Part shown: in pieces, positions 12,534-37,378 of the stretch
How positions within the stretch are numbered: the stretch's first letter is position 1
Layout of the letters: the number at the start of each line of letters is the position of its first letter
Assembly: GCA_041688535.1 (NCBI GenBank)
Contig: JBDNIB010000297.1
Span: 1 to 40,742 of the forward strand
DNA length: 40,742 bases
Direction of reading: 5' to 3'
Source: Prosthecobacter sp.
Lineage (GTDB): Bacteria > Verrucomicrobiota > Verrucomicrobiia > Verrucomicrobiales > Verrucomicrobiaceae
Translations under genes and position numbers: made by a program
Notes under the pieces: model-generated
What the model was told of the DNA's origin: nothing
Database searches by the model: none
Seen by the model: the letters and a program-made list of their open reading frames with translations, nothing else

Positions 12534-12537
12534 CCTG

Positions 12538-14345: not shown

Positions 14346-14635
14346 ATTATAATGATGAGGCTGGAATGAAGCATGAGCCGGCCGGGCGGACGCGGCTGCG
14401 GCCGGGGAAATATCGGCTGTATTGTGCGGGGCCGACGGGTGTGATCATGGATCTGTGCATCGAGATCGCGACGCGGACGACGTTTGAACTGTCGCTGGAT
14501 GATGAGCTGCTGGCGGAGCTGCTGGTGGTGACGAGCCTGGGCTGCGGGGTGGTGGAGGGCGAGTTGCACAAGGCACAGCGCCCGGACCGCCTGAAGGCGG
14601 AACTACGAACACGGATGGGAGGGCCGGAGTTATGA
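14342..14635 (+). CDS. Hypothetical protein (in-frame REP)
   Basis: ATGA coupling, GGAGG RBS. Confidence 0.6.
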   Translation: MNYNDEAGMKHEPAGRTRLRPGKYRLYCAGPTGVIMDLCIEIATRTTFELSLDDELLAELLVVTSLGCGVVEGELHKAQRPDRLKAELRTRMGGPEL

Positions 14636-19246: not shown

Positions 19247-19291
19247 GGCTGATGCCAGCAATTAATTTGTTTAGTTTTTCACTCCCCAACC

Positions 19292-20386: not shown

Positions 20387-22242
20387 AGGTGGATGCTATC
20401 GACGACGTGGCGGCGGTGCTGCGATCTGCATTTGAGGCGGCGGATGTGCCGGTGCCGGATGAGGCGGCACTGACAGTGCCGATGCTAAATGTGAATCTGC
20501 CGATTGACGATCTGGCGAATCGCGTGGCGGATTTGCTCAAGGCCAGCGATGGCAGATGGGGACTGTTTCGGGCTGACGATACGATAGTGACGGTGGATGA
20601 AGCGCGGGGCGGGAAAAAGGCGATGACGGCGCGTGGGTTTCGCACCTGGCTGCCAGGGGTGCGCGGCGTTTTTCCAGTCGCGAAATGGTATGAGAGCGGT
20701 GAGACGGATGAGCATGGCAACAAGGTCAAGAAACCGATCAAGGGCGAGCTGACGAAGGATCAAGCGGAGACCATGCTGGATGTGAATGGCGTGCTGATGG
20801 CGAAGCTGCCGCGGCTGAATGCGATCAATGCGGTGCGGCTGCCGGTGCTGGATGCGGTAGAGCTGGATGAGCGAGGCAATGCGCGGATGCGACTGCTGCA
20901 GCATGGCTACGATGCGCCGACGGGCATCTATACCTGCCGGGGTGGCGTGGACTACAGCGACGCGATGGATTTTGACGAGGCGGTGAATTACTTCTGGGAG
21001 CTTTTTCGCTGGTTCGGCTGGCGGACGCCGCAGCGTGATTTTGCGATTCATTTGTCGGCGATTCTGACCATGTATGGGCGGGGGATTTATGCCGGGAAAG
21101 CGCCGATGCATTTCTACAACGCGAATATTCAGGAGTCGGGCAAAACGACGCTGGCGAGCTATGTGACCTGGCTGACGCATGGTTCGATGCAGACGCGGCC
21201 GCTGCTGCCGGATGCGGAGGACAAGCTCATGGAGGTGCTGAATACAGCAGCGCTGCATGGCAGCCCGTATGTGTTTTTCGACAATGTTGACTGGGGGAGT
21301 GACCCGGTGAAAACAGTGCTGCTCGATGAATGGCTCTCCAACAGAGAGCGTGTGTTTCGCAAGCTGGGCGGCAACAACGAAGGGGCAGTGAAACTGCGAG
21401 CGATGACGCTGGGGACAGGCAACAACACGACGCTGAGCGCCGATTTGCAGCGGCGTTCTTTGATCGTGGATCTGCTCAATCGGCAGGCTGGTGCGGATCG
21501 CGAATTGCCTAAAAGCGTGCGGCTGCTCGATGATGCGTTTTTCGAGAGTGAGAAGAATCGGAGCGAGGGGCTGGCGGCCGCCTGGGCGTTGATCCGCGAC
21601 TGGGACACAGATGGCCGGCCGGCGTGGCCGCACAAGGAACTTGGCAGTTTCAACATGTGGTCTCGCGTGATTCCTGCCGTGGTTTTGCACGCGGGAAAAA
21701 AGGGCGCGAGCGCGAATTGGAACTGCATGGTGGTGAGCCCGAATGAGAATATTGGCGACAAGGACAGCGTGGAGTTTCGGAAGCTGGCGGAGCTGGCGCT
21801 GGCGGAGTTTGGTCCTGGAGAGGATCGCGTGATGCGCGATACATTTGAAATCACGGTGGCGCAGTTTGCTGGCGTGGCGCGGCGGCATGCGGTAGCGACG
21901 CATGCGCTTTGGCCCCAGAAAGATATCGAGTCCGTGATGCAGACTGAGGGGCAGTCGGGGGGATGGAAGGCGGCGGCGACAACGCTGCCGATGGCGGATG
22001 CGCTGGAGGACGTGGACGCTTGGGCAGGCGGGTCCACGGGCGATGAGATGGGGCGGAAGAGGAGCGCTAGCGAATGGATGTCGCCAAAGTCGCGAAGTGC
22101 CTTTGGGAACGCGCTCAAGAGCAAACTGAACGAGCTTTATTTTCACGGGCCAGATGGGCGGGAGTATGAGCTCCAGCATTGCGGCCAGGTGACTCCGGCG
22201 CGATACAATGTCGAGCGGGTCAAGGTGGCGAAGCGGGCCTGA
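20383..22242 (+). CDS. Putative replicative helicase/P-loop NTPase
   Basis: Walker A ESGKTT, Walker B VFFDN, GTGNN, DLQRR. Confidence 0.7.
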   Translation: MKVDAIDDVAAVLRSAFEAADVPVPDEAALTVPMLNVNLPIDDLANRVADLLKASDGRWGLFRADDTIVTVDEARGGKKAMTARGFRTWLPGVRGVFPVAKWYESGETDEHGNKVKKPIKGELTKDQAETMLDVNGVLMAKLPRLNAINAVRLPVLDAVELDERGNARMRLLQHGYDAPTGIYTCRGGVDYSDAMDFDEAVNYFWELFRWFGWRTPQRDFAIHLSAILTMYGRGIYAGKAPMHFYNANIQESGKTTLASYVTWLTHGSMQTRPLLPDAEDKLMEVLNTAALHGSPYVFFDNVDWGSDPVKTVLLDEWLSNRERVFRKLGGNNEGAVKLRAMTLGTGNNTTLSADLQRRSLIVDLLNRQAGADRELPKSVRLLDDAFFESEKNRSEGLAAAWALIRDWDTDGRPAWPHKELGSFNMWSRVIPAVVLHAGKKGASANWNCMVVSPNENIGDKDSVEFRKLAELALAEFGPGEDRVMRDTFEITVAQFAGVARRHAVATHALWPQKDIESVMQTEGQSGGWKAAATTLPMADALEDVDAWAGGSTGDEMGRKRSASEWMSPKSRSAFGNALKSKLNELYFHGPDGREYELQHCGQVTPARYNVERVKVAKRA

Positions 22243-22412
22243 TAGCGAGCGCGGCCGCCGAAGCAAGGCGTGGACCAATCACGGGCCGTGCTCTGGCCGC
22301 GTGATGCGGTCGCGGGCCGTAGCGTGTAGCGCGGCCGCCTCTGCTCTAGGAGCACGGCATGTGCGGCAGCATCAGCGCATCGCGCTGGACAGATCTCCGG
22401 TTCGGGGTGCGC

Positions 22413-22620
22413 CCTCCCGCGCCCTCCCGACCTCCTGTTTTTGTTAGGTCAGGGGGCGCAACCTCCCCGACCTATGGGGGAAATTGAGGAATTGACCGCG
22501 TTTAGATTTCGGCGGATGCCATTGACCTCCCCGACCTATGGGCAAGAGGATAGCACCTGTAGCGGCTGGAAGCCTTGATTTACCAAGGATTTTGGGAGGT
22601 AAGGGAGGTAAGGGAGGTAT
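22413..22620. other. Candidate replication origin (iterons)
   Basis: ACCTCCCCGACCTATGGG at 22461 and 22525; inverted GGGAGGTA x3 at 22594-22620; non-coding, directly after primase/helicase; near skew switch. Confidence 0.65.
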
Positions 22621-22814: not shown

Positions 22815-22836
22815 TTGACACTTGCCAAGATTGATG
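22815..22836 (+). promoter_or_regulatory. TTGACA-N13-start motif (representative of 10 late copies)
   Basis: Also at 4626, 7962, 25663, 25910, 31097 (13 nt to ATG/GTG) and 28899, 29528, 33624, 37337 (longer leaders). Confidence 0.75.
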
Positions 22837-23736
22837 GCCGAAAGCATCTCTACCCCCCTCGCTCAAGCTGTGCCTTCGGAATTCGCAAGCGCGCGATGCG
22901 CGGCACTCATGCGGCGCTACGCGCTCGGCCATGTGCTGACGGCGGCGCACAAAAAAGAGCTGGACAGCGTGCTCCCCGTTGGCAAGCCAATGGCGAAACG
23001 CGCCACCAGCGAGACCTATCGATTCAAGCTCGCTTACTACGCCAAATTTTTTAAGCTGGCGGGCAAAGATCCTGAGCGAAAATTAAAGCGCTGGATTGCA
23101 AAAGGGCGCGAGGTTTCGCCGGCAGACATGCCGCCCTTTGATTCGCCCGGCCTCATGGCTGACTGGTGGCGGCGGCACATGGAATGGCGTGTGCCGCTTT
23201 ATTTGCTGCGCCACGAGCAGCCGGACGCGGCAATTGACCCGCCTGGCGCGCCGCCTACCACGCCCGCACCATCCCCCGCGTCGATGGGTGACCCGACGGG
23301 GGATCCCGTCGTGCTCGATATGAGCATGGATATTGCGACAGACATGGGCTTGCAGCAAATTCGCGCGCTCGTTGTCGCCACATTTCAACAGCTCCAGCGC
23401 TGCATGGCGAGCGGTCATCTGGCCCAAGCCAATAATTTTCGGCGCGAATGGCAAAGCCTCGTCGGCACCCTCCGCCAGTGGGAAAAAGACATCGTAAAAA
23501 TCCAGGAGGGCAAAGGCGAAGTGATGCGCACGCGCGTCATCAATACGGAGCTGGTGCGGATATTCGGAGTCTTGCGGCAAAGCTTCACCAATGAGCTGCT
23601 TGATCTCGCTGAACAACTCGCGCCGGAAATGCCGCCGCCTGAACGGCGCGAGATAGTCTTGCGCAGGCGTGACAAATGTTTCGTGCATCTCAAATCAACG
23701 CGCTTTGTATCTAGCTATCAACCGACCAATGAGTGA
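22834..23736 (+). CDS. terS: Terminase small subunit
   Basis: Overlaps start of the large terminase; HTH-like N-terminus and coiled C-terminus. Confidence 0.7.
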   Translation: MAESISTPLAQAVPSEFASARCAALMRRYALGHVLTAAHKKELDSVLPVGKPMAKRATSETYRFKLAYYAKFFKLAGKDPERKLKRWIAKGREVSPADMPPFDSPGLMADWWRRHMEWRVPLYLLRHEQPDAAIDPPGAPPTTPAPSPASMGDPTGDPVVLDMSMDIATDMGLQQIRALVVATFQQLQRCMASGHLAQANNFRREWQSLVGTLRQWEKDIVKIQEGKGEVMRTRVINTELVRIFGVLRQSFTNELLDLAEQLAPEMPPPERREIVLRRRDKCFVHLKSTRFVSSYQPTNE

Positions 23737-25666
23737 CCTTTTTTCCGTCGCGCAAGCCAAGCAGTTCATCGGCACGCCGGAGAGTGATTTCTTGCTCGAT
23801 CTTGTCGCCTCTGTGATGCAGACCCAACCTACAGAGCCGGTGTGGAAATGGGCGGAGCGGCATGTGTGGCTAGATGAAAAAATGAGCGCCAAGCCCGGCC
23901 AGTATAATTCGAGTTTTACCCCGTGGACGCGCGAATGGCAAGAGCTGCCACTGCGCCCGGAAGTGCGCGAAGGCGTGTTCATGAAATCATCGCGTACCGG
24001 CGTGTCCGAGGCCGCGCTGAACATACTTCGCTGGATGCCTGACAATTGGCCTGGCAATGCGTTGTACTCGATCAACTCAGACAAAAAAGCGCGCGAAGTC
24101 GGCGAGCGCCGTATTCTGCCATCAGTGCAAAAAATCGCCGGTGCGCAAATGACCGATGATGAAAACGACGCCACGCTTTCGCGCATCTCGCTAAAAAACA
24201 TGGACATCATGATCTCCGGCTCTGGCTCCGATGGGCCGTTCATGGAAATCTGGTACCGCTTGATCATCCTCGACGAGTTAGAAAAACACATTGTGTCGCA
24301 GGGCACCACGACGTACGACCGCGCCAAGTCGCGCCAGACCGATGTCACCGATGGTCTGCTGCTCGCGCTATCAAAGCCAGAAGATGCGGGCGGCGTCATC
24401 GATCTCAAATACATCAACGGCACACAAAAAAAGTTCCTTGTGCCGTGTCCTCGCTGTGATCAGCGCATTGAATTCCTGACAAAATTTCTCGTCGCAAATC
24501 ATTGCAAAGAAGACTCCGGCTGGAACCTCCAGCGCGTGGTGGCGGAGACGTACTATCAATGCCAGCTTTGCCAGCAGCCTATCCACGAACACGAAAAACG
24601 CGCAATGGTCAACGCTGGCGTTTGGGTGCCAACCCCGGAAGCACAACGCCGCCGTCCGCCGAATGGAAACTATGTGCCACCCGAGCCAGGCGTCGAGTCA
24701 TACCAGATTTCAGACCTTTACTCGCTCTTTGAGCGCGTCAACTGGGGCAACCTCATGAAGATGTGGCTACAGTCGAATGTCATCAATCCGACCGAGGAAG
24801 CGAAAAAGTATTTTCGCATGAACCACGAAGGTATGCCCTGGGAAAATGAAACCTATAGCATCACGAAAGAAACGGTGCAGGCATTGCAGGCCGGGCGTGT
24901 TGAGGAGCAGATGATCAAGGCCGCCGACGGCACCGAAAGCCGAGTGCGGGTGCAGCTTGGCGAGTCTTTCCGGCTCGCCTATCGCCATGGCCAGTTCAGC
25001 TCACCGCTGCCGTTCCGTCCGGCGATGCTTTTCGTGACTATCGACAAACAGTGGGACCATCTAAAGTACATGGTGTGCGCGTGGAACTCGGATGCAGAAA
25101 ATTTCCTTGTCGATCTCGGCCGTCTAAGTGACGAGGATCAGCTCAATGATTTGCGCACGCGACCTTATTACGTCGCCGGTAGATCGCAGCCGGAGTACAT
25201 CTTCTCCGGCCTGCTCGATTCGGGGCATCGTCGCGATGAAGTGTATCGCGCCTGCATCAAACATCAGACCACCGCCTGCGCAATCCACCCTGCCGGCTGG
25301 CAGCTCCACCCGTGTCGTGGCGAGGGCAAACATGAGGAGTATCGTGGGCGGCTCTCGCGCCTCATGACAGATTACATCGACGGCCAAGAAATTGCCGTGC
25401 GCATGTTTTTCGATCACGGCCTCAAAAACGAAATCTACATCGGCCAAATGCAAAAGCGCAAAGCGCCGCGCCTTTGGTTGCCGCTCGATTATCCGGCAGA
25501 GCTGGAAAACGAACTCACCGCTGAAATTTACGACAAGTCCGCGAATAAATGGGTGCATGAAAAAATCAAACGCGGCCCGAATGACTGGGGCGATTGCCTG
25601 AAGTATCAATACGGCGGCCTGCAGGAGTTTCGCGAAGAGCTCAAGTCGCTGCCGTTGCCAGATTGA
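23729..25666 (+). CDS. terL: Terminase large subunit, lambda gpA family
   Basis: FTPWTRE, MKSSRTGVSE, ILDELE, VPCPRC, YQCQLC, PNDWGDC. Confidence 0.9.
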   Translation: MSDLFSVAQAKQFIGTPESDFLLDLVASVMQTQPTEPVWKWAERHVWLDEKMSAKPGQYNSSFTPWTREWQELPLRPEVREGVFMKSSRTGVSEAALNILRWMPDNWPGNALYSINSDKKAREVGERRILPSVQKIAGAQMTDDENDATLSRISLKNMDIMISGSGSDGPFMEIWYRLIILDELEKHIVSQGTTTYDRAKSRQTDVTDGLLLALSKPEDAGGVIDLKYINGTQKKFLVPCPRCDQRIEFLTKFLVANHCKEDSGWNLQRVVAETYYQCQLCQQPIHEHEKRAMVNAGVWVPTPEAQRRRPPNGNYVPPEPGVESYQISDLYSLFERVNWGNLMKMWLQSNVINPTEEAKKYFRMNHEGMPWENETYSITKETVQALQAGRVEEQMIKAADGTESRVRVQLGESFRLAYRHGQFSSPLPFRPAMLFVTIDKQWDHLKYMVCAWNSDAENFLVDLGRLSDEDQLNDLRTRPYYVAGRSQPEYIFSGLLDSGHRRDEVYRACIKHQTTACAIHPAGWQLHPCRGEGKHEEYRGRLSRLMTDYIDGQEIAVRMFFDHGLKNEIYIGQMQKRKAPRLWLPLDYPAELENELTAEIYDKSANKWVHEKIKRGPNDWGDCLKYQYGGLQEFREELKSLPLPD

Positions 25667-25700
25667 CATCCCTGCTCTCGCATGCGCCACCGCATCGCCC

Positions 25701-25901
25701 TTGATGATCACCGACATCCAACGCCACCAGCTCGCCATCCTCGACCGCGCTAAAGTCATGTGCGAGGCCGAGGGCATCGTCGCAAAAATCGTCGGCTACG
25801 GCACGCTGCTATTGGTCCTCCCCGTCTATGGCGACGCTGGTGCCGAGCAGCTTATGCTTGATGCCACCGCGCCTGCCGCTCAGCTACCCGCACCGACTTA
25901 G
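25701..25901 (+). CDS. Hypothetical protein
   Basis: Fills the gap between terL and the next gene. Confidence 0.5.
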   Translation: MMITDIQRHQLAILDRAKVMCEAEGIVAKIVGYGTLLLVLPVYGDAGAEQLMLDATAPAAQLPAPT

Positions 25902-25928
25902 CCCGGACTTTGACACGCGTCGCGCCTT

Positions 25929-26252
25929 GTGGCTGCCACCGTCCTAAATTCCGAACTTCTCATCGCGGGCATCTTGCGGCGCGCGCGCGCCATGCCGGAT
26001 CCCGCCGCGTATCTTGGCGGGCTGCATGATGCCGCTTTTACCGCCGTGATGGCGGGTGATGAGTACGTTACCAATATCAGCGCCGACGGCGGGTCGAGCA
26101 CGGCGGAGCGCAGCCTGCCCGCCACCGTTCTCCTGCAGCTCTACGAGGCCGCATTGCAGAGCTATGAGGCCACCGCCGCTGCCGGCACTCGCGTCGGCGA
26201 TGGCTCCGTTCGGCACGGCGATTTCAGTCAATCTCCCAGCATTCTCGGATGA
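25929..26252 (+). CDS. Head-tail joining protein (gpW position)
   Basis: Synteny before the portal; TTGACA-N13-GTG. Confidence 0.6.
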   Translation: MAATVLNSELLIAGILRRARAMPDPAAYLGGLHDAAFTAVMAGDEYVTNISADGGSSTAERSLPATVLLQLYEAALQSYEATAAAGTRVGDGSVRHGDFSQSPSILG

Positions 26253-27862
26253 GTTCACGCCACAAAAAAAATCGCAAACACGCCGCGTCGATGATTGGCG
26301 TGGATTCGTCCACGCCCTTCATGCCGACCCCATCCGCCGCATGGGGCTCGTTTCAGGGAGCGGACACCACTTCGCGCGATCGCGGCTATATCTATATCCC
26401 GACGTTGGACACGCTGAAAGAGGTTGATGCCTATTCGCGCACAGAGCTGCTTCGCCGCGCCAGATATATTTACAATTCGGGCGGCGGCTTGATTCATCGC
26501 GGCGTCGATGGCGTCGCCCGCATGATCTGCGGCACCGGTCTTTTTCCGTATCCGCTCGGCAAAAACAAAGCTCGAAATCAGCGCCTGCGGCAGCTCTGGA
26601 ATGCGCGCGCCGAAGCCGCTGGCACCTTCGATCTCTCCCGAAAATTCACCTGCGGCATGGCGCAGCAGGCCATCGTGCGCGGCAAAATTAAAGATGGCGA
26701 CGTCGCCCCAGTGCTTGCCCGCAACGAAGCCGGCCGCTTGCGCGTCATGTTTTACGAGTCGCATCAGATCGGGCAAAGCACTACCCGGGTAGTACTTGGA
26801 GAGCGCTGGCATGATGGGGTTCAGCTCGATCAGCACAATGGCCCGCTTGCCTATCGCCTGCTCAGCACTGACGCTGCCACCGGCCGCGAAACCAGCGTCG
26901 ATGTGCCAGCGCAAAACGTCCTATTTTGCGCGAACTACGAGCGCTTCGGGCAGGTGCGTGGACTTACCCGCTTCTATCCCGTCCTGAACAAAGTTCTCGA
27001 TCGCGGCGAGATCATGCACGCCATTACTAAAGGCATCAAAATGCGCGAACAGATCGCCTATGCCCTGGAGCAGCAGCAGCAGCCGCTCCCCGGTGCCGTG
27101 CAGGCCGGCGCGCGCGGCGTGCTGTCGCCCCGCCCCACCACGGAAGTCGAAATTGCCACGGGCAAGTTTGTGACGATGGAGCAATTTTTCGGCAGTGGAC
27201 AAACGCAGGACCTCAAGCCGGGCCAGTCGTTCAAAGTCATCGAGTCAGCGCACCCTGATGCCAATGTGCAATCCCATCTCGAAAATCTCGTGCGTGATGT
27301 CGCTTGGGCGCTCAAGTTTTCGCCAGAACTGCTGTGGAATATCACACAGCTCGGTGGTGCCAATACGCGCTTCATCATGGCTGATGCACAGTCACAGATT
27401 GAGGTCGAGCAGCAGGAGCTCGTCGAGCAGTTCCTCGGCCCCTATTTTCTTGCGTGGCAGCGCGATATGATCGAGGCGGGCGAGATCGAAGACGCGCCCG
27501 ATTGGGAGCTGCACACCTGGCTGCTGCCCAAGCGCCTTACTGTAGATTTTGGTCGCGATGGCAGGCTGCACATCGAGCAGGCAAAGCGCGGCATGATCAC
27601 GCTGAAAAGTCTTTACGGCTTCGTCGGTGACGACTGGCAGATTGAGATTGATCAATACCTCGACGAGCGCCAATACATCAAGGAAGGTATCGCCGCGCGC
27701 GGCCTTACTTATGCCGAAGCTTACCCCGAAATCGGCACCGGTACCACTGCCAGTCAGGAGCAGGCAGATGCCGCTGCTGAAAGCTCCACGACTACCCAAC
27801 AAATCGCCGAAATGCATGAGTCCATCATGCGCGCCGCAGATCACCGCCCCCACCGCTCATGA
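26249..27862 (+). CDS. Portal protein, lambda gpB family
   Basis: LLRRARYIYNS, DGVQLD..G.PLAY, GQVRGL motifs; size and position. Confidence 0.9.
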   Translation: MSSRHKKNRKHAASMIGVDSSTPFMPTPSAAWGSFQGADTTSRDRGYIYIPTLDTLKEVDAYSRTELLRRARYIYNSGGGLIHRGVDGVARMICGTGLFPYPLGKNKARNQRLRQLWNARAEAAGTFDLSRKFTCGMAQQAIVRGKIKDGDVAPVLARNEAGRLRVMFYESHQIGQSTTRVVLGERWHDGVQLDQHNGPLAYRLLSTDAATGRETSVDVPAQNVLFCANYERFGQVRGLTRFYPVLNKVLDRGEIMHAITKGIKMREQIAYALEQQQQPLPGAVQAGARGVLSPRPTTEVEIATGKFVTMEQFFGSGQTQDLKPGQSFKVIESAHPDANVQSHLENLVRDVAWALKFSPELLWNITQLGGANTRFIMADAQSQIEVEQQELVEQFLGPYFLAWQRDMIEAGEIEDAPDWELHTWLLPKRLTVDFGRDGRLHIEQAKRGMITLKSLYGFVGDDWQIEIDQYLDERQYIKEGIAARGLTYAEAYPEIGTGTTASQEQADAAAESSTTTQQIAEMHESIMRAADHRPHRS

Positions 27863-28818
27863 ATGAGACCATTAATTTCCATCACGTCGCTCGCGCCTTT
27901 TATTTCGAGCCGCTGGCGCTTGAGCAGAGCGCCATGCTTGCTTGCCACATGTATCTCTGGCCGCGCATCACCGGCCAGGTGCAGGACTCCGCGCCATTAA
28001 CCGCCAGCGCCGCCGATGGTCCCACCAGCCCCCAGCACGTTAAGGCCACTGGCGGATCGGCGCACATGCGCAAACAGATCGCCATGCCCGCGATGCAATC
28101 GAATGGTCCGTTTGCCCCCACCACCATCTTAGACCCTAGCTATTACTGGACCATTGATGGCAAGCCCGGCATCGCCGTCATTCCGCTCAATGGCATGATC
28201 AGCAAGGGTGCATCCCCCTTCGCCGAGGCGTGCATGGGCGCGTTGAATCCCGACCGCATCTCGCACGCGCTCAATCAAGCCCTCGCCGCGAAGGATATTA
28301 AAACCATTGTGCTCGACATCGGCTCTCCCGGTGGTCGCACCACCGCCACCCCTGAACTCGCCGCCCTGGTGAAGCAGGCTACGCAGACGCGCGGCAAGAC
28401 GGTCTATGCGTTCACCGACACTCACATTGCATCCGCTGCCGAGTGGATCGCCAGCCAGTGCGATGAGGTTATCATGACCGGCTCCGCCTCGCTTGGCAGC
28501 ATCGGTACTTATTTAGCTTTCTTGAATCCTAAAGTCGCCATGCAGATGCAAGGCTACGCGCTGGAGCTTTTCAGCCAGGGCACGCACAAAGCCCTTGGCA
28601 TGCCCGGTCGCGATCTCACGCAGGCAGACCGCGAATACCTCCAGGGCACCGTGGACAAATGCAATGCTGAGTTCATCGCCGCCGTCAAATCCGGCCGCCC
28701 CAAAGCCAGCGAAGAATCCTTGCGCGATGCAAAAATGTACGCAGCCGACGACGCCATCCGCCACGGCCTCGCCGACGGCATCGTCTCCTCTTGGGACGAA
28801 TTCGTCAGCCTCCTCTAG
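27859..28818 (+). CDS. S49-family head maturation protease
   Basis: DIGSPGG, ASAAEWIASQCD, GSIG, GLADG. Confidence 0.9.
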   Translation: MNETINFHHVARAFYFEPLALEQSAMLACHMYLWPRITGQVQDSAPLTASAADGPTSPQHVKATGGSAHMRKQIAMPAMQSNGPFAPTTILDPSYYWTIDGKPGIAVIPLNGMISKGASPFAEACMGALNPDRISHALNQALAAKDIKTIVLDIGSPGGRTTATPELAALVKQATQTRGKTVYAFTDTHIASAAEWIASQCDEVIMTGSASLGSIGTYLAFLNPKVAMQMQGYALELFSQGTHKALGMPGRDLTQADREYLQGTVDKCNAEFIAAVKSGRPKASEESLRDAKMYAADDAIRHGLADGIVSSWDEFVSLL

Positions 28819-28945
28819 CCGTTCGTAGTTCCGGCTTCAGCCGGTCCGGTTTCCCCGTTCGTAGTTCGGGCTTCAGCCCGTCCGCCTCCCCCGTTCGTTT
28901 GACACCCCGCCCCCATCGCCGCAGTCACCTCTACCTCCCCTCTCC

Positions 28946-29512
28946 ATGCTCAAACCTCGCCACGCCCTCTTCCTCCTCACCGCCGCCAGCGAGCACGCCA
29001 GCGCCGGTGGTGGTGACACCCCCATCGTCGATGCCGCCGCCGCCATCGCCGCCATTGAAGACAAAACTTTGCCGATGTCGCAGCGTCTCGGTGTCGCGCT
29101 CAAGGCTCTGCAGGGCATCGCTCCCGCGGCACAATTCACCGCCGTCCAGGCCGATCTCGCCGCCGCTCAGGCCGCCCTCGTCACGCGCACGGCCGAGCTC
29201 GCCACCGCGCAGGCCAGTCTCTCCGCGTTGCAGACCGATTTCACCGCGCTGGAAGGCGAAAAAACCACGCTCGCCAAAGAGCACGCCACCCTCTGCGCGC
29301 AAGAGCGCGATGTCGAAAAACGCGCCGCTGCAAAGAGCGCGGAGCACATCGCCGCTCTCGGTTTTGCCGCTGGCAAATTGCCCGCCCCCAGTGCCGACTT
29401 GCCTGCCGATATTCCTGCCAACCGCGTCGAGTTGGAGACCGCCCTGGGCAAGCTCAAAACCGCCGACGAGCGCCGCGCCCTGCTCAAACAATTCAACAAC
29501 CGCGCCGCCTAA
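28946..29512 (+). CDS. Putative scaffold protein
   Basis: Coiled coil between protease and capsid genes. Confidence 0.55.
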   Translation: MLKPRHALFLLTAASEHASAGGGDTPIVDAAAAIAAIEDKTLPMSQRLGVALKALQGIAPAAQFTAVQADLAAAQAALVTRTAELATAQASLSALQTDFTALEGEKTTLAKEHATLCAQERDVEKRAAAKSAEHIAALGFAAGKLPAPSADLPADIPANRVELETALGKLKTADERRALLKQFNNRAA

Positions 29513-29567
29513 AACTAAGCCGCGTTTTTGACATTCAGCATCTCCCGAATCCGCACCCTCTCTTATT

Positions 29568-30740
29568 ATGGCAAACACTATCGACTCCAATCTGCAGCTC
29601 ACCGAAGTCCTCGACTCTGCGATGCAGGCCATCAAGCGCCGCCTCCTGCCGCTCCTGGCTTTCAGCACGGTTTACCGTAACGTCCAGCTCAAGGGCGATG
29701 ACCAAATGGCCGTCCCATTTTATCCGCTTGCCACCAGCGACAGCGTGACGCGCACCCCCAGCGGTTCGCGCATCGCGCTCGCTACCGCCACTGCCACAGA
29801 GTCGCGCACAATTGAAAATTTCACCAACAAGGTGCAGGCGCTCAGTTTCACCGGCACCGAGCGCGCCCGCCAGCCGATGTTCAATCCCGTTAAACACGGT
29901 GAAATGAAAGGCCGCAAACTTGCCGAAGACATCCTCGCGGACATCTTCGGCATCGTCAAAGCCAAGACCTTCACAGGTGCCACGATTGCCGCCACTACCG
30001 CTGCCAACTTTGATGAAAACGACGTCGCCGATCTGCGCACCTTGTGCGTCGATAGCTACTGGCCCGAAGGCGATCGCGCCCTCATTCTCAATCCGAGTTA
30101 CGCTGGCAACCTGCTGAAGCAGGCTCAAATCATTGATGCCGCCAAGCGCGCCGATGGCGGGTCGAATTTCACCGATGGCGTCCTCTCCCGCATCCTCGGC
30201 TTTGATGTGTACGAGTCCGCTGGCGTGCCGACCAACAACGTCGCCGCGCTCACCATCACTGGTGGTGTCTCCGCCACCGATGTCATCACCACCAGTGCCG
30301 CGCACGGTCTGGCCGTTGGAGATCGCCTCATCTTCCCGACGCTCTCAGGTGGCTCAGGCATCACTGCTGCCACCACCGCTTACTTCGTGGCGGCCGTGCC
30401 GAGCACCACGACTTTCACCGTCTCCGCCACCCTCGGCGGTGCCGTACTGGACTTCACCACCACCATCACCGCCGGCACGGTGCGCGAGTACGAAAACATC
30501 GCCGGGTTCGCGGTCATGCCATCCGCCATCCTCATCGGCTTCGCCCCGGTGCCACCTACCCCCGCTATCCGTGGCGATCTCTTCGACTACCAGGAGCTCG
30601 TCGATGACTCAGGTCTCGTGCTGCAATACTATCACGGTGCCGATGCCAACACTGATCAGGAGTATCAGACTATCGAATGCCACTACGGCTTCGGCCTTGG
30701 CGATGCCGCGCAGCTCAAGCTCATCACCACCCCGATCTAA
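29568..30740 (+). CDS. Major capsid protein with inserted beta domain
   Basis: MANT start, RALILNP, GVLSRILGFDVYES, YGFG C-terminus; synteny. Confidence 0.8.
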   Translation: MANTIDSNLQLTEVLDSAMQAIKRRLLPLLAFSTVYRNVQLKGDDQMAVPFYPLATSDSVTRTPSGSRIALATATATESRTIENFTNKVQALSFTGTERARQPMFNPVKHGEMKGRKLAEDILADIFGIVKAKTFTGATIAATTAANFDENDVADLRTLCVDSYWPEGDRALILNPSYAGNLLKQAQIIDAAKRADGGSNFTDGVLSRILGFDVYESAGVPTNNVAALTITGGVSATDVITTSAAHGLAVGDRLIFPTLSGGSGITAATTAYFVAAVPSTTTFTVSATLGGAVLDFTTTITAGTVREYENIAGFAVMPSAILIGFAPVPPTPAIRGDLFDYQELVDDSGLVLQYYHGADANTDQEYQTIECHYGFGLGDAAQLKLITTPI

Positions 30741-30745
30741 GCCCC

Positions 30746-31012
30746 ATGAAGCTCGCCCTCCTCATCGCCCTGTCCGCCGACCGGCGGCAGGGCACGCCCC
30801 TCGGCGACGCCATGCCTTACGATCAGGCGCTCAACGAGTTCAAGCGCGCCACCACCCTCGGCCTCGCGCCCGCGCCAGATCGGCCCGTGCTCGAATTGTG
30901 GGCTGGCAACTCCCCCGCCAAGTCACATCGTTTCAAAGCGCCCGCTCCGAAGGCCAAGCCCGCGAAAAAAGCCCCGGACGCCGTTGCCGCAGACGCCGCA
31001 CTGCTCTCGTAA
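30746..31012 (+). CDS. Hypothetical virion protein
   Basis: ATG 30746 right after the capsid gene; K/A/P tail. Confidence 0.6.
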   Translation: MKLALLIALSADRRQGTPLGDAMPYDQALNEFKRATTLGLAPAPDRPVLELWAGNSPAKSHRFKAPAPKAKPAKKAPDAVAADAALLS

Positions 31013-31115
31013 AAATCTCCGGTCGCGCAGACCGGCTTTCATGCAAGCTCGCCGTGGTCTTTTGGTTGGGGACCACGGCGTCCTTGTGTTGTCAGATTGA
31101 CAACGGCTCTCCCCC

Positions 31116-31481
31116 ATGACCCTCTCCGCCGTCCTCAGCGCCCGCCAGCGGCATCAGACTGGTGTCATGACTACCAGCGGCCTCGCGGGCGGCAAAGAGC
31201 AGCTACAGCCCGGCAGCATCAGCATCGGCGGCACCAGCTATGTCGCCGCTGTGCATCTCGGTGAAGTCCAGCACCGCATGGACACCACCACCGGCCTCTG
31301 GCGTCGGCTGCAGCCCCTCGTCGCCACCGTGCGCAAGGTCTTACTCGCCACCGCCCCCGCGAAAAAAAGCGTTATCACTTTCGGCACCGTGATCTACCAG
31401 ATCGACGACGTTGCCGGGCACAATGCCACCGATCTTGTCTGGACGCTCAAGGCCGAGCGCCTACTCCCCGCCCCCGCATGA
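31116..31481 (+). CDS. Head-tail adaptor (gpFII position)
   Basis: Synteny, size; TTGACA-N13-ATG. Confidence 0.55.
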   Translation: MTLSAVLSARQRHQTGVMTTSGLAGGKEQLQPGSISIGGTSYVAAVHLGEVQHRMDTTTGLWRRLQPLVATVRKVLLATAPAKKSVITFGTVIYQIDDVAGHNATDLVWTLKAERLLPAPA

Positions 31482-32287
31482 GCCAGCTCGCCCGCATCAA
31501 GGGTATGCCGAAGCTGCTTAGCCAGCTCCGCGCCTATCCGCACTTTGTCAGCGCGCAGGCCACCGTGCTCCTGCACAAGCACGCGCGCGTGCTCATCAGC
31601 TCCAGCGGAAAAAACAAGGGCCTCGTGCAGATCGTCCCGCCCGTCAGCATGGACCGCGACATCACTGGCCCCGCTGCCCGAAAGCAGGGCGCGAGCAAAG
31701 TTCAAACGGACATCTGGAAAGTCTATGGCACCCCGGGCGATGTGTACAAGCAACTCAAAGCGAAAAATCCGGCTGTCGCCGCAGGCTATTGGGCGGCCGT
31801 GCAGCGGCGGGACTGGACTGCCGCGAATGCCCTCGCCCGCCGACTCGGTGTACCGCAGATCGTGGACTTCACTGGCGACGACGGAGCGGAGCACAAACTC
31901 CGCAGGCGCAACGGTGTCGTGACTGGTAAGGCCAAGACACTCTTCGTCACGGATGCCCGTTATGTCCGCTCCTATATCAAGCTAAAGCAGGGCAACGTCG
32001 GCCTCCTCGCCGCCGCATTAGTAAACAGTTACAGCGGGGCTTTCGGCCCCCTGCGTGGCGTCCCCGCGTGGGTCGCGCGGCACTCCGGCTCCTGGGGTGC
32101 GGCGCAGATCGCCGAGACGCAGCAGGGCGCGAGTACCAGCGTGCGCATCAGCCTTGAGGCCGGTGCATTGAATAGTCACCTCCAGCGCTTTTTCACGCTC
32201 GCGGATATGCACCGCCAGCGTGCCATGGCGCGCGAAGCCCCCTTTGCCATCCGCGCCGCCGCCAAGGCCGCTGGCCTCCTCCACTAA
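31478..32287 (+). CDS. Neck/tail completion protein
   Basis: Basic protein, synteny, ATGA coupling. Confidence 0.5.
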   Translation: MSQLARIKGMPKLLSQLRAYPHFVSAQATVLLHKHARVLISSSGKNKGLVQIVPPVSMDRDITGPAARKQGASKVQTDIWKVYGTPGDVYKQLKAKNPAVAAGYWAAVQRRDWTAANALARRLGVPQIVDFTGDDGAEHKLRRRNGVVTGKAKTLFVTDARYVRSYIKLKQGNVGLLAAALVNSYSGAFGPLRGVPAWVARHSGSWGAAQIAETQQGASTSVRISLEAGALNSHLQRFFTLADMHRQRAMAREAPFAIRAAAKAAGLLH

Positions 32288-32298
32288 CACCTCCGCTC

Positions 32299-32724
32299 AT
32301 GCGCGATCTCATCTTCACCAACTTTATCCACGGCTACCTCGACACCGCCGCATCTCGCGCCGTCGGCATCCCCGCCGCTGCCGTTTGCGCGCTCCTCAAA
32401 ATGGACGCAGACACCGACGACCTCGACCCGCGCATCTGCATCACCGCCGAAGAGCAGGGCACCAATCGTTCGCGCCAGCTCACCGTCACCATCAGCGCGC
32501 GCGGCACCGTCGCTCGCGCCACCACCGATCCCTGGCTGGACGCCATCGCCCTCCGCCTGGCCGATCACCACCAGCTCGCCCTCCACCTCGCCGCGCAAAA
32601 CTACAGCACCCGCCTCGGCTACCAAATCGAGCACGTCACACCCCCCGCCGCCGTCCGCGTCCAACGCACCGAAACCGGCCCCATCGAATCCGCCGTCGCC
32701 ATCACCTTCCACCTCACCGTCTAA
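32299..32724 (+). CDS. Putative tail terminator
   Basis: Size and synteny. Confidence 0.5.
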   Translation: MRDLIFTNFIHGYLDTAASRAVGIPAAAVCALLKMDADTDDLDPRICITAEEQGTNRSRQLTVTISARGTVARATTDPWLDAIALRLADHHQLALHLAAQNYSTRLGYQIEHVTPPAAVRVQRTETGPIESAVAITFHLTV

Positions 32725-32810
32725 CCCTGTTCGTAGTTCGGGCTTCAGCCCGTCCGCCTCCCCCGTTCGTAGTCCCGGCTTCAGCCGGTCCGGTCAGCCC
32801 CTTCCACCGC

Positions 32811-33563
32811 ATGAAACAACTTCCACCCGCGCCGTATTATGACCGCGACGGCATCACTCTTTACCACGGCAACTGCCGCGAGATACTACCGCACCTGCAG
32901 CCCGTTGACGCCGCCGTCACCGACCCGCCCTACAACGAAACTAATCTTGAATGGGACACCTGGCCTGTCGGCTGGCCTTCGCTGCTCGCGCCACTGACCA
33001 ACTCGTTTTGGTGTTTCGGCTCGTTGCGGATGTTCTGGGATCGGCGCGATGAGTTTGGCGCGTGGAAACTTGCGCAGGACATCGTTTGGGAAAAACACAA
33101 TGGCAGCGGGATTGCCTCAGATCGGTTCCGCCGCGTGCATGAACTGGCGGTTCATCTTTATCAGGGGGATTGGGCGGCGCTCCATAAGGCCGTCCCGCGC
33201 GTTGGCGAGCATCGCGCCACAAAGATGATGCAACGCGGCAAGACGCCCCACCTCGGAACAAAAGGACAACTTGGAATACAAGAGGGCCAAAAGCTCATGC
33301 GCTCAGTCATCTACGCCAACAGTTGTCAGGGCTACGCAGTCAACGAAACGCAAAAACCGGAGGCGCTGATTTCGCCCCTGCTGGAATATTGCGTTCCTCC
33401 CGGCGGCAGCGTGCTGGATTGCTTTGCTGGTAGTGGCACCGTGCTCGCCGTCGCGCGCGCTCAGGGGAAGCGCGCCATCGGCATTGAGCAGCGCGAAAGC
33501 CAATGCATCGAGATCGTCAAGCGGCTCTCACAAGGCGATCTTTTTCAGGATCCCCGTTCGTAG
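32811..33563 (+). CDS. Beta-class N6-A/N4-C DNA methyltransferase
   Basis: TDPPY, TQKP, VLDCFAGSGT; bounded by 41-bp REP direct repeats. Confidence 0.9.
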   Translation: MKQLPPAPYYDRDGITLYHGNCREILPHLQPVDAAVTDPPYNETNLEWDTWPVGWPSLLAPLTNSFWCFGSLRMFWDRRDEFGAWKLAQDIVWEKHNGSGIASDRFRRVHELAVHLYQGDWAALHKAVPRVGEHRATKMMQRGKTPHLGTKGQLGIQEGQKLMRSVIYANSCQGYAVNETQKPEALISPLLEYCVPPGGSVLDCFAGSGTVLAVARAQGKRAIGIEQRESQCIEIVKRLSQGDLFQDPRS

Positions 33564-33659
33564 TCCCGGCTTCAGCCGGTCCGGTCAGCCCCATGCCCCA
33601 CGCCCCATGCCCCCCGCCCTCATTTGACACGCCCCCTCCATCGTCACACCGCCTCACCC

Positions 33660-34145
33660 ATGAAACACCTCCTCCTCCTCTCGCTCCTCCTCTGGCTCCC
33701 TGTCCTGCCCGCCCTCGCCGCTGATCTCACCGTCACGCCAGCGAATTTCCTCCCCGGTGCTGGCGCAAAATTCCACACCGGCATTGCCGGTGCCACGATC
33801 ACCGCCGGCCAGCTCATCGCGATCTCCGCCAGCACGGGAAAATTCGTCCTCGCCGATGCCAATGACGCCGCGCTCAGCCAAGTCATCGGCATCAGTGCGC
33901 ACGCCGCGCTGAACACGCAGCCTCTCGCCGTCGTGTGGTATGCCGATGACCTCACCCCTGGTGCCACGCTCGTCATGAGCACCATGGTCTATGTCTGCTC
34001 CGCCACTCCCGGCGGCATCGCCCCCGCCGCCGATCTCTCCGCTGGCGGCCTCTATCCGAACGTCCTCATGATCGCCATCTCGACCACGAAATGCGTCTTC
34101 CGCGCCCCCGGCCTGCTCGGTTCGGCGCTCTCGGTCGCGCCTTAA
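33660..34145 (+). CDS. Decoration/cement-like protein with signal-peptide-like N-terminus
   Basis: MKHLLLLSLLLWLPVLPALA-A followed by AGATITAGQ...LADAN...GI motif. Confidence 0.55.
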   Translation: MKHLLLLSLLLWLPVLPALAADLTVTPANFLPGAGAKFHTGIAGATITAGQLIAISASTGKFVLADANDAALSQVIGISAHAALNTQPLAVVWYADDLTPGATLVMSTMVYVCSATPGGIAPAADLSAGGLYPNVLMIAISTTKCVFRAPGLLGSALSVAP

Positions 34146-34182
34146 TTTTTCGCCGCAATCCTCACCTCTCACTCTCACTCCC

Positions 34183-34623
34183 ATGCCTGACACCCCCGAT
34201 CCATTTGTTGAGCCAATCATCGAGCACGGCGTCAAGGTCTCCGACCTCGCAGATGAGGACGGCGCGCTCATTCTCAGCCTCGACCTCTCTCCGATGCGTG
34301 ATGCCGTCATGCAAAAAGGCGCCTCCCGCGCGACCGAATACGTCCGCTACGAAGACCCGCGCATCGAAGGCGAAATGAGCTTGCGCCCGCGCCGCAACGC
34401 GCTGGGCCTCCCCTACGGCCTTGGCAATGCCCATCCCGGCAGTGCCGTCACCGATCTCGTCAATCTGCCGGTCAACAGCAACATCCACGGCTTCCGCATC
34501 AGCGAGTCCGCCACCATCTGCCTGAACAACCCCAAGCAAACGCGCGGCGACGACGGGCTGCAGATCACTCAGCCGTTCGTCTATTATCCGTTCGTCCTTT
34601 CGGCCGCTGCCCTGGCCGCATAA
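34183..34623 (+). CDS. Putative tail tube protein
   Basis: Size, synteny before chaperone/TMP, followed by a terminator. Confidence 0.45.
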   Translation: MPDTPDPFVEPIIEHGVKVSDLADEDGALILSLDLSPMRDAVMQKGASRATEYVRYEDPRIEGEMSLRPRRNALGLPYGLGNAHPGSAVTDLVNLPVNSNIHGFRISESATICLNNPKQTRGDDGLQITQPFVYYPFVLSAAALAA

Positions 34624-34744
34624 AAGCTACCCAACAAAATAGGCCCGCGCTGGACGGGCACCAGCCGCAAGGCTAGCTCGCGCGCGAGCATCCAGCACCC
34701 CCTTCCATCCATCTCTATGTCCCCGTGTCGTGTTGCACGTTCCG

Positions 34745-34791
34745 CGTCGCATGCCTGCCTCTCCCCTGGCAGCGCATGCGGCGTTTTTTTT
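34745..34791 (+). terminator. Intrinsic terminator
   Basis: CGTCGCATGC...GCATGCGGCG stem followed by T8. Confidence 0.8.
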
Positions 34792-34849
34792 CGTCTCCCC
34801 CGTATTGTAGTCCCGGCTTCAGCCGGTCCGACTCTCCCCGCCTAACACC

Positions 34850-35629
34850 ATGAGCTGGACCACCAACAATCACAAAATTGCCGCCACGTTCTCCGGTTTA
34901 GGCTTCCGCGTCACCATCAACGAAACCGAAATCGTCGAGCTTGATAACTGGAAAAACCTTCGCTTCGAGGTCAGCGATAAATCGCTGCTGCATCCGCAGC
35001 TACCCTCGCGCGACGATCTCTATCGCGGCTGGAAAGAAGGCACGCTTAACAAGCTGGATCCCGATCATCCCTTCCTCTGCGGCTTCGCCGCCTGCCACAA
35101 TTTCGAGCAGATCATGCACATGCAGGCCACTGCCACCAGCTACCGCCTGCAGCGCGCAGCAGGCTCGCCGCTCTATCGCTACGAGGTCGGCATCGAAGAC
35201 TCGCGCTTGCAGCTCGCCCCCGCGCTACATGCCACCGTGGATCTCCCGCTCGCCGCCGCCGTCGCCGTCGCTGGTTTGCCCGTCATCAACATCGACGGCA
35301 ACCCCGGCCGCCGCCGCTATTTATTCCCCGACATGACGCTCGAATATCTGGACAACCCCACTGCCGCCGCCCTGCTTCCTGTCGCGCAATTCTTCCCCCG
35401 CATCTACCCGCGCAAACCAAACTTGCAGCTCGGCCTCACCCATCCGCAGCACCCCGTCGTGCAGGGCTACAACGCCGCGTACCACTACGCATCCATCCTC
35501 GGCCAGCTCAAACAAATCAACAAGCGCCTGCTCATCAAAGATCCTTTCAGCAACCGCCGCGCCCTCATCCCCGAAAACCCCAGCGCAAAACTAGAAAACG
35601 AAGTCCGCGACCACTTCCGCATCCCCTGA
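34850..35629 (+). CDS. Hypothetical protein (REP-bounded)
   Basis: 259-aa ORF with phage-like codon usage. Confidence 0.75.
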   Translation: MSWTTNNHKIAATFSGLGFRVTINETEIVELDNWKNLRFEVSDKSLLHPQLPSRDDLYRGWKEGTLNKLDPDHPFLCGFAACHNFEQIMHMQATATSYRLQRAAGSPLYRYEVGIEDSRLQLAPALHATVDLPLAAAVAVAGLPVINIDGNPGRRRYLFPDMTLEYLDNPTAAALLPVAQFFPRIYPRKPNLQLGLTHPQHPVVQGYNAAYHYASILGQLKQINKRLLIKDPFSNRRALIPENPSAKLENEVRDHFRIP

Positions 35630-35690
35630 TCCCCGTATTGTAGTCCCGGCTTCAGCCGGTCCGGTTCCCTCTTTTTGTGACCACCAACCA

Positions 35691-35954
35691 ATGCCGAAAA
35701 TGATCGAAATTTTACACAACTTCTTCGCCGGAATCACATTCGCGTTGGGCGTAACAGTCGGTGCAGTCCTCTGCCGCATCGCCAGCAAGGAAGGCCGCAC
35801 CGAAATGGTGGATACTGTGAAATCCAGCCATGAGCGAATCGAAGAACGGCTACGCATGAGCTTGAAATGCCATGAGCGGATAGCCGGTGCAATGGAGGCC
35901 ATAGCGCAAAAATCTGCTGGGAAGAACGCCGCTACCTGCGACGACCAACTTTAA
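35691..35954 (+). CDS. Small single-TM protein
   Basis: N-terminal TM; lower GC than flanks. Confidence 0.6.
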   Translation: MPKMIEILHNFFAGITFALGVTVGAVLCRIASKEGRTEMVDTVKSSHERIEERLRMSLKCHERIAGAMEAIAQKSAGKNAATCDDQL

Positions 35955-35958
35955 TTCC

Positions 35959-36198
35959 ATGTCCGCCAAACACTCCGCCCCGCCTTCTTCGTTCGTAGTT
36001 CCGGCTTCAGCCGGTCCGCTTCCCCTCACACTCCCATCTGGTTCTGCCTTCTGGCTGCTCTTCGAGCACATGAGCCGGCAGCACAATTTATCGCTGCTCG
36101 ACTCCGAGCTCGCCGATGTCTGCGCCGCCGTCGATCAGATGCGCGCGGCATGGGAGGCTAACGCGCTGCACAACCAACTCCCCGCCGCGCCCCTTTAA
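35959..36198 (+). CDS. Hypothetical protein (in-frame REP)
   Basis: SSFVVPASAGP peptide. Confidence 0.55.
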   Translation: MSAKHSAPPSSFVVPASAGPLPLTLPSGSAFWLLFEHMSRQHNLSLLDSELADVCAAVDQMRAAWEANALHNQLPAAPL

Positions 36199-36211
36199 TT
36201 CCACCCTCCTC

Positions 36212-36451
36212 ATGCTCACCTGGCACGACAACCACGCCACCATCATCCGCCTCACGGATGCCACCGAGCGCACCTGCGAGCTCGGTCATTTCGCCGGGCG
36301 CGGTCTGTGCTTTTTGAACATCCCCCGCTGTGATCATTCTGAGTTGCGCATCGACCCCCGCCTCGCCCGCGAACTCGCCACAATCCTCTCCCACTTCGCC
36401 GACTTCCGACAACTCCCCCATCGCCCCACCGCCCCCGACTACAGCATCTGA
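36212..36451 (+). CDS. Hypothetical protein
   Basis: ATG 36212; ends at a REP dimer. Confidence 0.55.
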   Translation: MLTWHDNHATIIRLTDATERTCELGHFAGRGLCFLNIPRCDHSELRIDPRLARELATILSHFADFRQLPHRPTAPDYSI

Positions 36452-36546
36452 GTTCGTAGTCCCGGCTTTAGCCGGTCCGCCTCCCCGTATTGTAGTCCCG
36501 GCTTGAGCCGGTCCGGTTCCCCTCACCCACACACCCCCACCCCACT

Positions 36547-37080
36547 ATGTCACCCACTCTCCTCACTGACGACTCCGCCGATCACCTCGCCGATCACACC
36601 GCCGCCCAAGCCCGCACCGCCGCCGTCATCGGCAGCATCACCTGGCATGGCAAACCCCTGCTCTGGACGTCCTCACGCGCCGCCCTCTACGATTACCTGC
36701 GCATTCCCTCGCCCATGCTTTCCGCCGCTGCCATCGCCGCGATCAAGGCCGCGCGCGAGGCCGAAGGCACTCCCGCGCAGGCCGCGCTACAGGACCACGC
36801 CAATGAAATTTACATGAGCGAAACCGGCGGCAGCACCGGCCATGTGCGCAATGCGCAGATCATCCTCTGGCTTGCCGCTCATGTGCCTGGCGACTGGCGC
36901 GCGCTCGTCCATGATCGCGGCCGTTTGCTAGAGTCCATCGATGCATGGACTGATGAAAACGTCGGCATCGATGAGCTGCAAAAGCTCGCCGATGTCACCA
37001 ACGAACTCCTCACCGCTGCCGACGCCACCCGCGCCATCGCCCGCCCCCGCCACGTCAACGCTGACGAATCGGGAAACTAG
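36547..37080 (+). CDS. Tail assembly chaperone (gpG-like)
   Basis: Upstream of TMP; ends in slippery G GGA AAC TAG. Confidence 0.75.
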   Translation: MSPTLLTDDSADHLADHTAAQARTAAVIGSITWHGKPLLWTSSRAALYDYLRIPSPMLSAAAIAAIKAAREAEGTPAQAALQDHANEIYMSETGGSTGHVRNAQIILWLAAHVPGDWRALVHDRGRLLESIDAWTDENVGIDELQKLADVTNELLTAADATRAIARPRHVNADESGN

Positions 37081-37340
37081 CCCAGCCTTCGGAGGAGGCA
37101 TGCTATGTCATCCTCCTCGCGAAGGCTTGTCACGGGCTGTTCGATCACGCTGCCGATGCAGCGGGCCAGCCCCTCACACCCTACGATTACATTCGGGACT
37201 ACCTGCCACTCGCGCAGGGCCGCGCGCTGCTGCACGCCGCTGCCATCCTCGACGGCCAGGTCATGGTCTGGCCCGATCCCCAGCTCAGTCGGCGCGGCCG
37301 CTGGTGGCTCAAAGTCCGGCAACTTTTTCGCCCGCATTGA
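37071..37340 (+). CDS. gpT-like extension via -1 ribosomal frameshift
   Basis: The -1 frame is open 37071-37340 with no start at its 5' end; hairpin 37084-37127. Confidence 0.75.
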   Translation, partial: GKLAQPSEEACYVILLAKACHGLFDHAADAAGQPLTPYDYIRDYLPLAQGRALLHAAAILDGQVMVWPDPQLSRRGRWWLKVRQLFRPH

Positions 37341-37378
37341 CACCGCCACGCTCTCGCTAGCTCACCCTTCCATCCATC

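Follow-up and report, generated by a model that had tools for sequence, protein, structure and literature searches.

Bacterial promoters are taught as a -35 element plus a -10 element, or as a -10 element alone, and the hexamer TTGACA is normally the -35 box of the sigma70 class. A phage-bearing stretch of 40,742 nucleotides (nt) from Prosthecobacter sp. (GenBank assembly GCA_041688535.1, contig JBDNIB010000297.1; "the window" below means this whole stretch) raises the question of how transcription could start from this hexamer alone. Copies of TTGACA preceded by A or T (W) lie ahead of its late genes, several of them exactly 13 nt before a start codon. The initial annotation read them as a leaderless or short-leader late promoter with the hexamer at about -19 to -14, and the sequence tests described below lend support to this putative promoter. 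The element is real, family-wide and strongly selected. It is probably a DNA promoter with its +1 at the 14th base after the hexamer. The fuller proposal is that WTTGACA acts as a single-element late promoter positioned at -19..-14 and turned on by an early helix-turn-helix (HTH) protein encoded at 16046-16795 that would redirect the host RNA polymerase; it is held with rather less confidence, as a reasonably probable account.

The hexamer in the window and in related loci

The window is one whole contig (C759) from a genome of 72% completeness. The two contig ends share 14 bases, so the late genes can be treated as one arc that starts at 22.8 kb, crosses the junction and ends at 8.5 kb. All ten hexamer coordinates of the initial annotation are correct, and each copy lies on the plus strand and is preceded by A or T. 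Five copies stand 13 nt from a start codon. These are the copies at 22815-22820, before ATG 22834 of the gene that precedes terL (by its position the small terminase, conserved in relatives, with a predicted leaderless start); at 25910-25915, before GTG 25929 of the gene upstream of the portal (gpW-like by position); at 31097-31102, before ATG 31116 of the adaptor-position gene; at 4626-4631, before GTG 4645 of the gene upstream of the fibre gene; and at 7962-7967, before ATG 7981 of the lysin-position gene (phrog_3000). The other five lie 30-41 nt from their genes. For four of them such a distance had been proposed, and it is borne out: 41 nt from 28899-28904 to the scaffold-position gene (28946), 34 nt from 29528-29533 to the major capsid gene (29568), 30 nt from 33624-33629 to ATG 33660, and 36 nt from 37337-37342 to the tape-measure gene (37379). 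In these four, a C|G step occurs at the predicted +1 (28918, 29547, 33643 and 37356, respectively). The tenth copy, 25663-25668, contains a TGA that doubles as the terL stop codon, and has its predicted start at 25682. It had been assigned to a 23-codon open reading frame (ORF) at 25682, which is probably not a gene, since its ATG reads ACG in L009, a relative of 99% identity. The target is instead an ORF of 65 amino acids (aa) at 25704-25901, 35 nt away, which has homologues at 40-95% identity in related loci.

The plus strand of the late arc carries 11 copies of TTGACA, the ten described above and one at 1363, against 2.5-3.7 expected, and the opposite strand carries none against 3.2 expected. 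ATG or GTG occurs at a single offset in 6 of these 11, a tally that includes the ATG at 25682 (P about 1e-7, or 6e-6 after 60 offsets). The 14th nucleotide after the hexamer is a purine in 10 of 10 copies, and in 9 of 10 it is preceded by a pyrimidine. As had been claimed, none of the ten copies has a -10 box 17 nt downstream, and nothing is conserved there across relatives. The contrast drawn between late genes lacking Shine-Dalgarno (SD) sites and early genes possessing them holds for the late side and for most of the early one. With a generic anti-SD sequence in place of the host's own, none of 25 late starts pairs better than -2.1 kcal, whereas pairing of -8 kcal or better is seen for 8 of 12 early starts, the early exceptions being int, parB2, the exonuclease and the primase. 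The eleventh copy (1363-1420 region) has no pyrimidine-purine step; a repeated palindrome and what is probably the start of a minus-strand gene are next to it, and its surroundings resemble the control region of an inserted accessory module.

The related loci are centred on the portal gene, and 135 of them were reduced to 75 by collapse at 90% DNA identity and to 74 by dropping L009. These 74 loci comprise 1.17 Mb, have portal identities of 24-77% and exclude L350 and L351. On the coding strand they carry TTGACA 375 times, against 34 on the opposite one, and W directly precedes the hexamer in 87% of family sites. The spacing peak in relatives that the initial annotation had named as a check is present: ATG follows the hexamer at 12, 13, 14, 15, 16, 17 and 18 nt in 2, 43, 35, 33, 24, 10 and 1 cases, and GTG occurs 43 times at 13 nt, with 5 cases at 12 nt and 3 at 14 nt. 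The spacing of exactly 13 nt is therefore accurate for the five window copies listed above, and the family range is 13-17 nt. Start codons at 6-10 nt are found in 9 of 377 sites. Among control hexamers, 16 of 18 give no spacing peak; the other two are TTGACG, with a peak at 14-16 nt, and TTGACT, whose peak is faint. In the 375 pooled sites A at -11 and T at -7 reach 13% each and no base bias appears 17 nt downstream; a second conserved motif was found neither in the pooled sites nor per genome in 22 genomes.

Orthologues of the gene preceding the portal keep the motif, 13-15 nt from the start codon, in 23 of 23 loci. The N-termini of these gpW-like proteins align from the codon defined by the motif, and an in-frame alternative start at 26-37 nt is available in only 2 of 22; judged from these alignments, the start codons 13-15 nt from the hexamer are real. 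Family loci have one conserved element at every late module, at module heads only. Coupled genes do without the motif (S49 protease gene in 29 of 29 cases, terL in 43 of 44), and conserved copies stand 26-65 nt from capsid-type and 33660-type starts. Two points reduce the weight of these counts. Stop codons of long open frames overlap 106 of the 375 sites and add to the conservation, and the P values are overstated because the loci are related. A stop-codon artefact as the cause of the motif was rejected, as the TGA of the hexamer is the stop of a real gene in one of the ten window copies and a long-frame stop in those 106 family sites, which leaves the remainder unexplained by it.

Two further observations concern the family sites. 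The frequency of A is raised to 29-39% (background 21%) at +9 to +12, in near-start and other sites alike. In six loci (L174:4011, L177:4343, L186:17134, L188:4187, L192:16480 and L201:2544) the first compact site, as the short-spaced copies are called here, leads into an ORF of some 450 codons that lies upstream of terS and has its GTG at 12-13 nt.

A promoter in the DNA or a signal in the RNA

A transcription start would be expected to leave a mark even where no start codon is near. Among the 163 sites lacking a start codon at 13-17 nt, 90 have a pyrimidine-purine (YR) step at the predicted +1, compared with 13-33% at other offsets, and in the closer clade the step is present in 75% of 67 leadered sites. 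A start-site study of gut bacteria reports that YR marks start sites in all four species examined, including Akkermansia (PMC4782308). The base composition differs as well: G makes up 36% of the 12 nt before near starts and 10% of the last 12 nt before the starts of leadered genes. Such G-rich near spacers and G-poor leaders are expected if the near spacer lies outside the mRNA.

The opposite strand gives the third line of evidence. In 42 loci with a portal identity of at least 33%, antisense TTGACA was seen 3 times against 86 expected, which makes it the most depleted of 3598 hexamers. Synonymous shuffling gives 2 against 41.6 expected, and 15 whole records bearing the 16046-16795 protein give 6 against 39.9; the phages P8625 and Moulinsart together have 7 against 8.6. 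This near-purge favours a DNA promoter over a ribosome signal. Several figures weaken the argument. The deficit is partly general, as 250 host contigs show 52 against 108 expected (ratio 0.48), and it shrinks to 22 against 48 in whole records when ORFs are chosen on both strands. Whole-record strand counts suggest that spurious antisense ORFs account for this weaker figure. For the window alone the count (1 against 1.6) is uninformative. A fourth comparison points towards a phage-specific promoter: in the host, TTGACA shows no peak at 13 nt (1 of 814 sites), and start codons set in at 29-32 nt. Taken together, the YR step without a nearby start, the antisense purge, the G-rich near spacers and the location at module heads favour a DNA element from which transcription would begin 14 nt past the hexamer.

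Two explanations would dispense with a compact promoter. UUGACA could work at the mRNA level as a signal for translation or processing, such as a ribosome aid other than SD, a site bound by an RNA-binding protein of the phage, or a guide for cleavage giving a 5′ end 13 nt downstream. The spread of 13-17 nt resembles a ribosome-binding window, the late genes lack SD sites, the motif is confined to the sense strand, and a processing cut could likewise fix a downstream position. However, such a signal predicts neither the antisense purge, nor the copies 26-65 nt from capsid-type and 33660-type starts, nor the restriction of GTG to exactly 13 nt, nor the YR initiator step. The host has no such signal, and judged by spacing and by use in host genes the features of an SD-like site are missing, given the spacing of 13-17 nt and the lack of such a peak in the host. 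A role in the RNA is thus improbable. Still further from credible is the explanation by ordinary -35 boxes with a degenerate -10, in which transcripts would start about 30 nt downstream and the codons at 13 nt would be miscalled or coincidental. It draws on the host, where start codons set in at 29-32 nt after TTGACA, on the canonical use of four TTGACA sites at 29-30 nt in phage P8625, these host and P8625 sites preceding leaderless starts, and on the five window copies 30-41 nt from a start. The -35 hexamer of the canonical sigma-70 promoter is indeed present, but none of the ten window copies has a -10 box TANNNT at 16-18 bp, and the 375 sites show no base bias at that place. N-termini are conserved from the codon at 13-15 nt, with almost no alternative downstream, and the YR step is found at 13 nt even in leadered copies. 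The real start codons and the YR step at 13 nt speak against a start about 30 nt after the hexamer, and the results on spacing, YR step and N-termini have already largely refuted this explanation.

An early protein as the candidate activator

From the sequence we infer the start sites, the late timing, the activation by a protein, the reader of the hexamer and the mode of DNA melting. The early gene at 16046-16795 would make the HTH protein, which would redirect host polymerase to each WTTGACA, and transcription would begin 13 bases past the hexamer, each late module having its own copy of the promoter. Where the start codon lies at +1 to +5, the message would have no leader or almost none; the other copies would give a G-poor leader of 17-28 nt without an SD site. 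Leaderless messages occur in Verrucomicrobia and make up 10% of Akkermansia start sites according to the same study (PMC4782308).

The candidate activator (16046-16795, plus strand) is a predicted helical bundle of 249 aa with an HTH at about residues 126-157 and a basic tail of the form GKS..AR..Y....GN, and its gene is an early one with a strong SD site. It has no Pfam or PHROG family; tblastn against GenBank phages gave no match, Foldseek against the Protein Data Bank (PDB) and viral models gave none at E 0.001, and the matches in the Atlas scored under 0.9 and are unnamed. Its own family, clustered at 50% identity, amounts to 532 clusters (E up to 1e-10). The HTH of the family profile matches Tfx at E 6e-4. 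Among 44 family members one matches Sigma70_r4 (E 0.011) and none matches a Q family of Pfam. Sigma region 2 has no Pfam match and none was recognised in the phage, the fold search covering mainly residues 55-166. The core model has a predicted local distance difference test score (pLDDT) of 83 and gives three tied fold matches at Z 5.5, below the trust level of the tool: sigma32 residues 198-284 (Z 5.5, root-mean-square deviation (rmsd) 4.2, 87 aligned), AlpA (7xyb; Z 5.3-5.5, rmsd 3.6, 75 aligned), which ties with the sigma factors, and the dCas12f-sigmaE chain 9n9q_C (Z 5.5, rmsd 5.0, 82 aligned). A predicted complex of the core with the host beta flap scored 0.00, with the fold of the partner uncertain. 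Some family members have a tandem double HTH core (L204:2322-3191 and many of P0157-P0305).

The connection of this protein with the promoter comes from their joint occurrence. A homologue is present in 26 of the 50 records behind the loci, many of which are fragments. Thalassobacterium maritimum SDUM461003 (L163) is one case, with a match to the protein at E 2e-27 and hexamer sites at 13-17 nt. Among 21 whole records, compact TTGACA starts are present in all 15 that encode the protein, 2-9 per record, and in none of the 6 without it. In a forward test, 301 genomes were searched with the protein profile alone, which gave 12 matches including G000, and all six new head-module loci carry compact sites (4 of 6, 8 of 21, 10 of 18, 2 of 6, 5 of 5 and 6 of 10); one partial match is without compact sites and one contig was too short. 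The gene itself shifts its position, from before parB in the window to next to terS in distant records, and tracks the motif down to 24% portal identity. Moulinsart, an Akkermansia phage, was discarded as a test system, as the five TTGACG copies that it has at 13-17 nt fall within annotated genes and a search for the protein found no homologue. That this protein switches the promoter on is fairly probable on these grounds.

Several findings weigh against such a role. Weak members joined the profile during iteration, which makes part of the co-occurrence not blind, and shared ancestry may account for it. G623 C34 has two matches to the protein, no head genes found and no compact site downstream (0 of 5). 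Conversely, G325, G327, G331 and G334 have 3-4 TTGACG sites at 14-16 nt without a detectable activator homologue. This TTGACG clade (loci L269-L270, L248-L249, L253-L254 and L271-L272) supplies four of the six protein-less whole records; its HTH-like gene of 127 aa directly before terS aligns with the activator at E 0.067 only, with no statistical link, and in the G193 prophage an activator homologue and TTGACG at 14-15 nt occur together. The recognition helix varies widely (HSKQNWRH, ETRAAVSAR, VVRATVDA; 9-28% identity) while the hexamer is constant, an awkward combination for direct reading, and the modelled likeness to sigma region 4 and AlpA, at only Z 5.5, stays under the trust level. The TTGACG clade also shows recurring CAAA, CAGA or AGAC downstream, at the predicted start.

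The identity of the reader of the hexamer is a narrower matter. The preferred sub-model, put forward tentatively, is that the phage HTH, resembling sigma region 4, would itself read TTGAC(A) and position the polymerase to open the DNA without a -10; the lack of a second motif, pooled or per genome, fits direct reading of this kind. Alternatively, the same compact promoter and activator would operate with the hexamer read by region 4 of host sigma-70, moved beside region 2 as in the lambda Q complex, with the phage protein holding the conformation. The exact -35 word fits this reading, as do host RpoD, whose regions 2 and 4.2 look canonical, and the constancy of the hexamer against a phage recognition helix that falls to 9-28% identity. 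According to the lambda Q report, sigma R4 moves off the flap tip onto a -35-like site, immediately upstream of the -10-like site held by R2 (PMC9388147), and -19..-14 followed by -12..-7 is that arrangement. Yet the Q complex requires a -10-like sequence and a separate Q-binding element and is paused rather than initiating; neither -10-like bases nor a second motif appear, pooled or in 22 genomes, and the phage HTH would be left without a sequence to read. Reading by host sigma is rather unlikely. Less likely again is a compact promoter switched on by another phage or host factor, with the HTH gene an inherited companion. The TTGACG clade and G623 C34 agree with it, and all records are kin; on the other hand, the HTH gene tracks the motif despite its changes of position, and it was not found in P8625 or Moulinsart, both of which lack compact sites at gene starts.

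Surroundings and known systems compared

The gene content of the window is that of a phage, with an integrase, a replication module, a gpA-type terminase, a lambda-type portal, an S49 protease, a capsid, a tape measure and collagen-like fibres. Portal homologues with names come from Prosthecobacter, Verrucomicrobium and other Verrucomicrobia, with close ones in Verrucomicrobium spinosum and Prosthecobacter algae. The late arc is C-rich and the early arc (8600-22500) G-rich, though both are coded on the plus strand, and the split in SD usage coincides with this split in GC skew. A palindromic repeat of about 36 nt, similar to repetitive extragenic palindromes, has some 30 copies in the phage (for example 569-606, 2157-2201, 9876-10110, 28816-28896, 32724-32804 and 36447-36527) and occurs also in host contigs. 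It points in one direction in the late arc and in the opposite one in the early arc; some copies lie in frame within genes and several directly upstream of TTGACA sites. An inverted repeat at 9851-9877, with 10-base arms and TTGACA on both strands, lies immediately 3′ of the integrase stop and is possibly an att core, an operator or a hairpin.

Small phage proteins that redirect host polymerase to a class of phage promoters are exemplified by the sigma appropriation of T4 AsiA/MotA and by staphylococcal RinA; these use their own binding boxes, and the 16046-16795 protein belongs to none of the Pfam or PHROG families. Their promoters presumably keep a -10 element. Late promoters with a single -10 element, as in Thermus phage Lalka27a and T4, share with the window phage one conserved element per late module; their -12..-7 placement is not found here, where the nearest starts are 13 nt away. 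T4 late promoters are taken here to belong with those of Lalka27a as a single -10-box type.

The following systems allow closer comparison. The Lalka27a late promoters are likewise many, one per module, with one short element, mostly leaderless messages and a presumed phage factor, but their element is the -10 box TAGGGT with a start 6 bp downstream, whereas that of the window phage is a -35 word at -19..-14 (bioRxiv 10.64898/2026.04.20.719267). Verrucomicrobia sigma-70 promoters, as seen in the host, in P8625 and in the Akkermansia map (PMC4782308), have the same hexamer, messages that often begin at the start codon, and YR at +1; in them, however, 29-32 nt separate the hexamer from +1 and a -10-like box stands in this interval, and in the phage the hexamer is about 16 bp closer, without a -10. 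The lambda Q loading complex (PMC9388147) similarly combines a phage protein with sigma R4 bound to a -35-like site that immediately precedes the -10 position, in late-gene control, but it is a paused complex at one promoter, with a -10-like pause element and a Q-binding element, and acts in antitermination, whereas the window phage has about ten dispersed sites with neither element. In RNA-guided transcription by dCas12f-sigmaE (PMC13472631) the start is likewise fixed by the distance from one upstream anchor without a -10 motif, which provides a precedent for such initiation; there an RNA guide 45-48 bp upstream serves as the anchor and a dedicated sigma factor is used, and here the anchor would be a DNA hexamer 13 nt upstream. 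Full-text searches, whose coverage leaves out subscription journals and bioRxiv supplements, found no description of this element. By the features tested, it is a putative phage late promoter of an architecture not found described, and neither a canonical sigma-70 promoter nor a Q cassette nor an SD site.

The chances are about even that this constitutes a third geometry of initiation, in which a sigma-4-like phage module of 130 residues would start transcription 13 bases past a lone TTGACA with no -10, making six bases a complete inducible promoter for leaderless messages in a widespread family of Verrucomicrobia phages. If true, the open complex would have to differ for a -35 word that works 16 bp nearer to the start and has no -10, and such a promoter would reveal how polymerase melts DNA without the bases usually captured. 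A large unnamed protein family (532 clusters) would receive a testable function, the control of late genes would be explained in a prophage family of an under-studied phylum, and the calling of gene starts in these phages would gain a rule. The element could also offer a six-base inducible promoter for Verrucomicrobia genetics.

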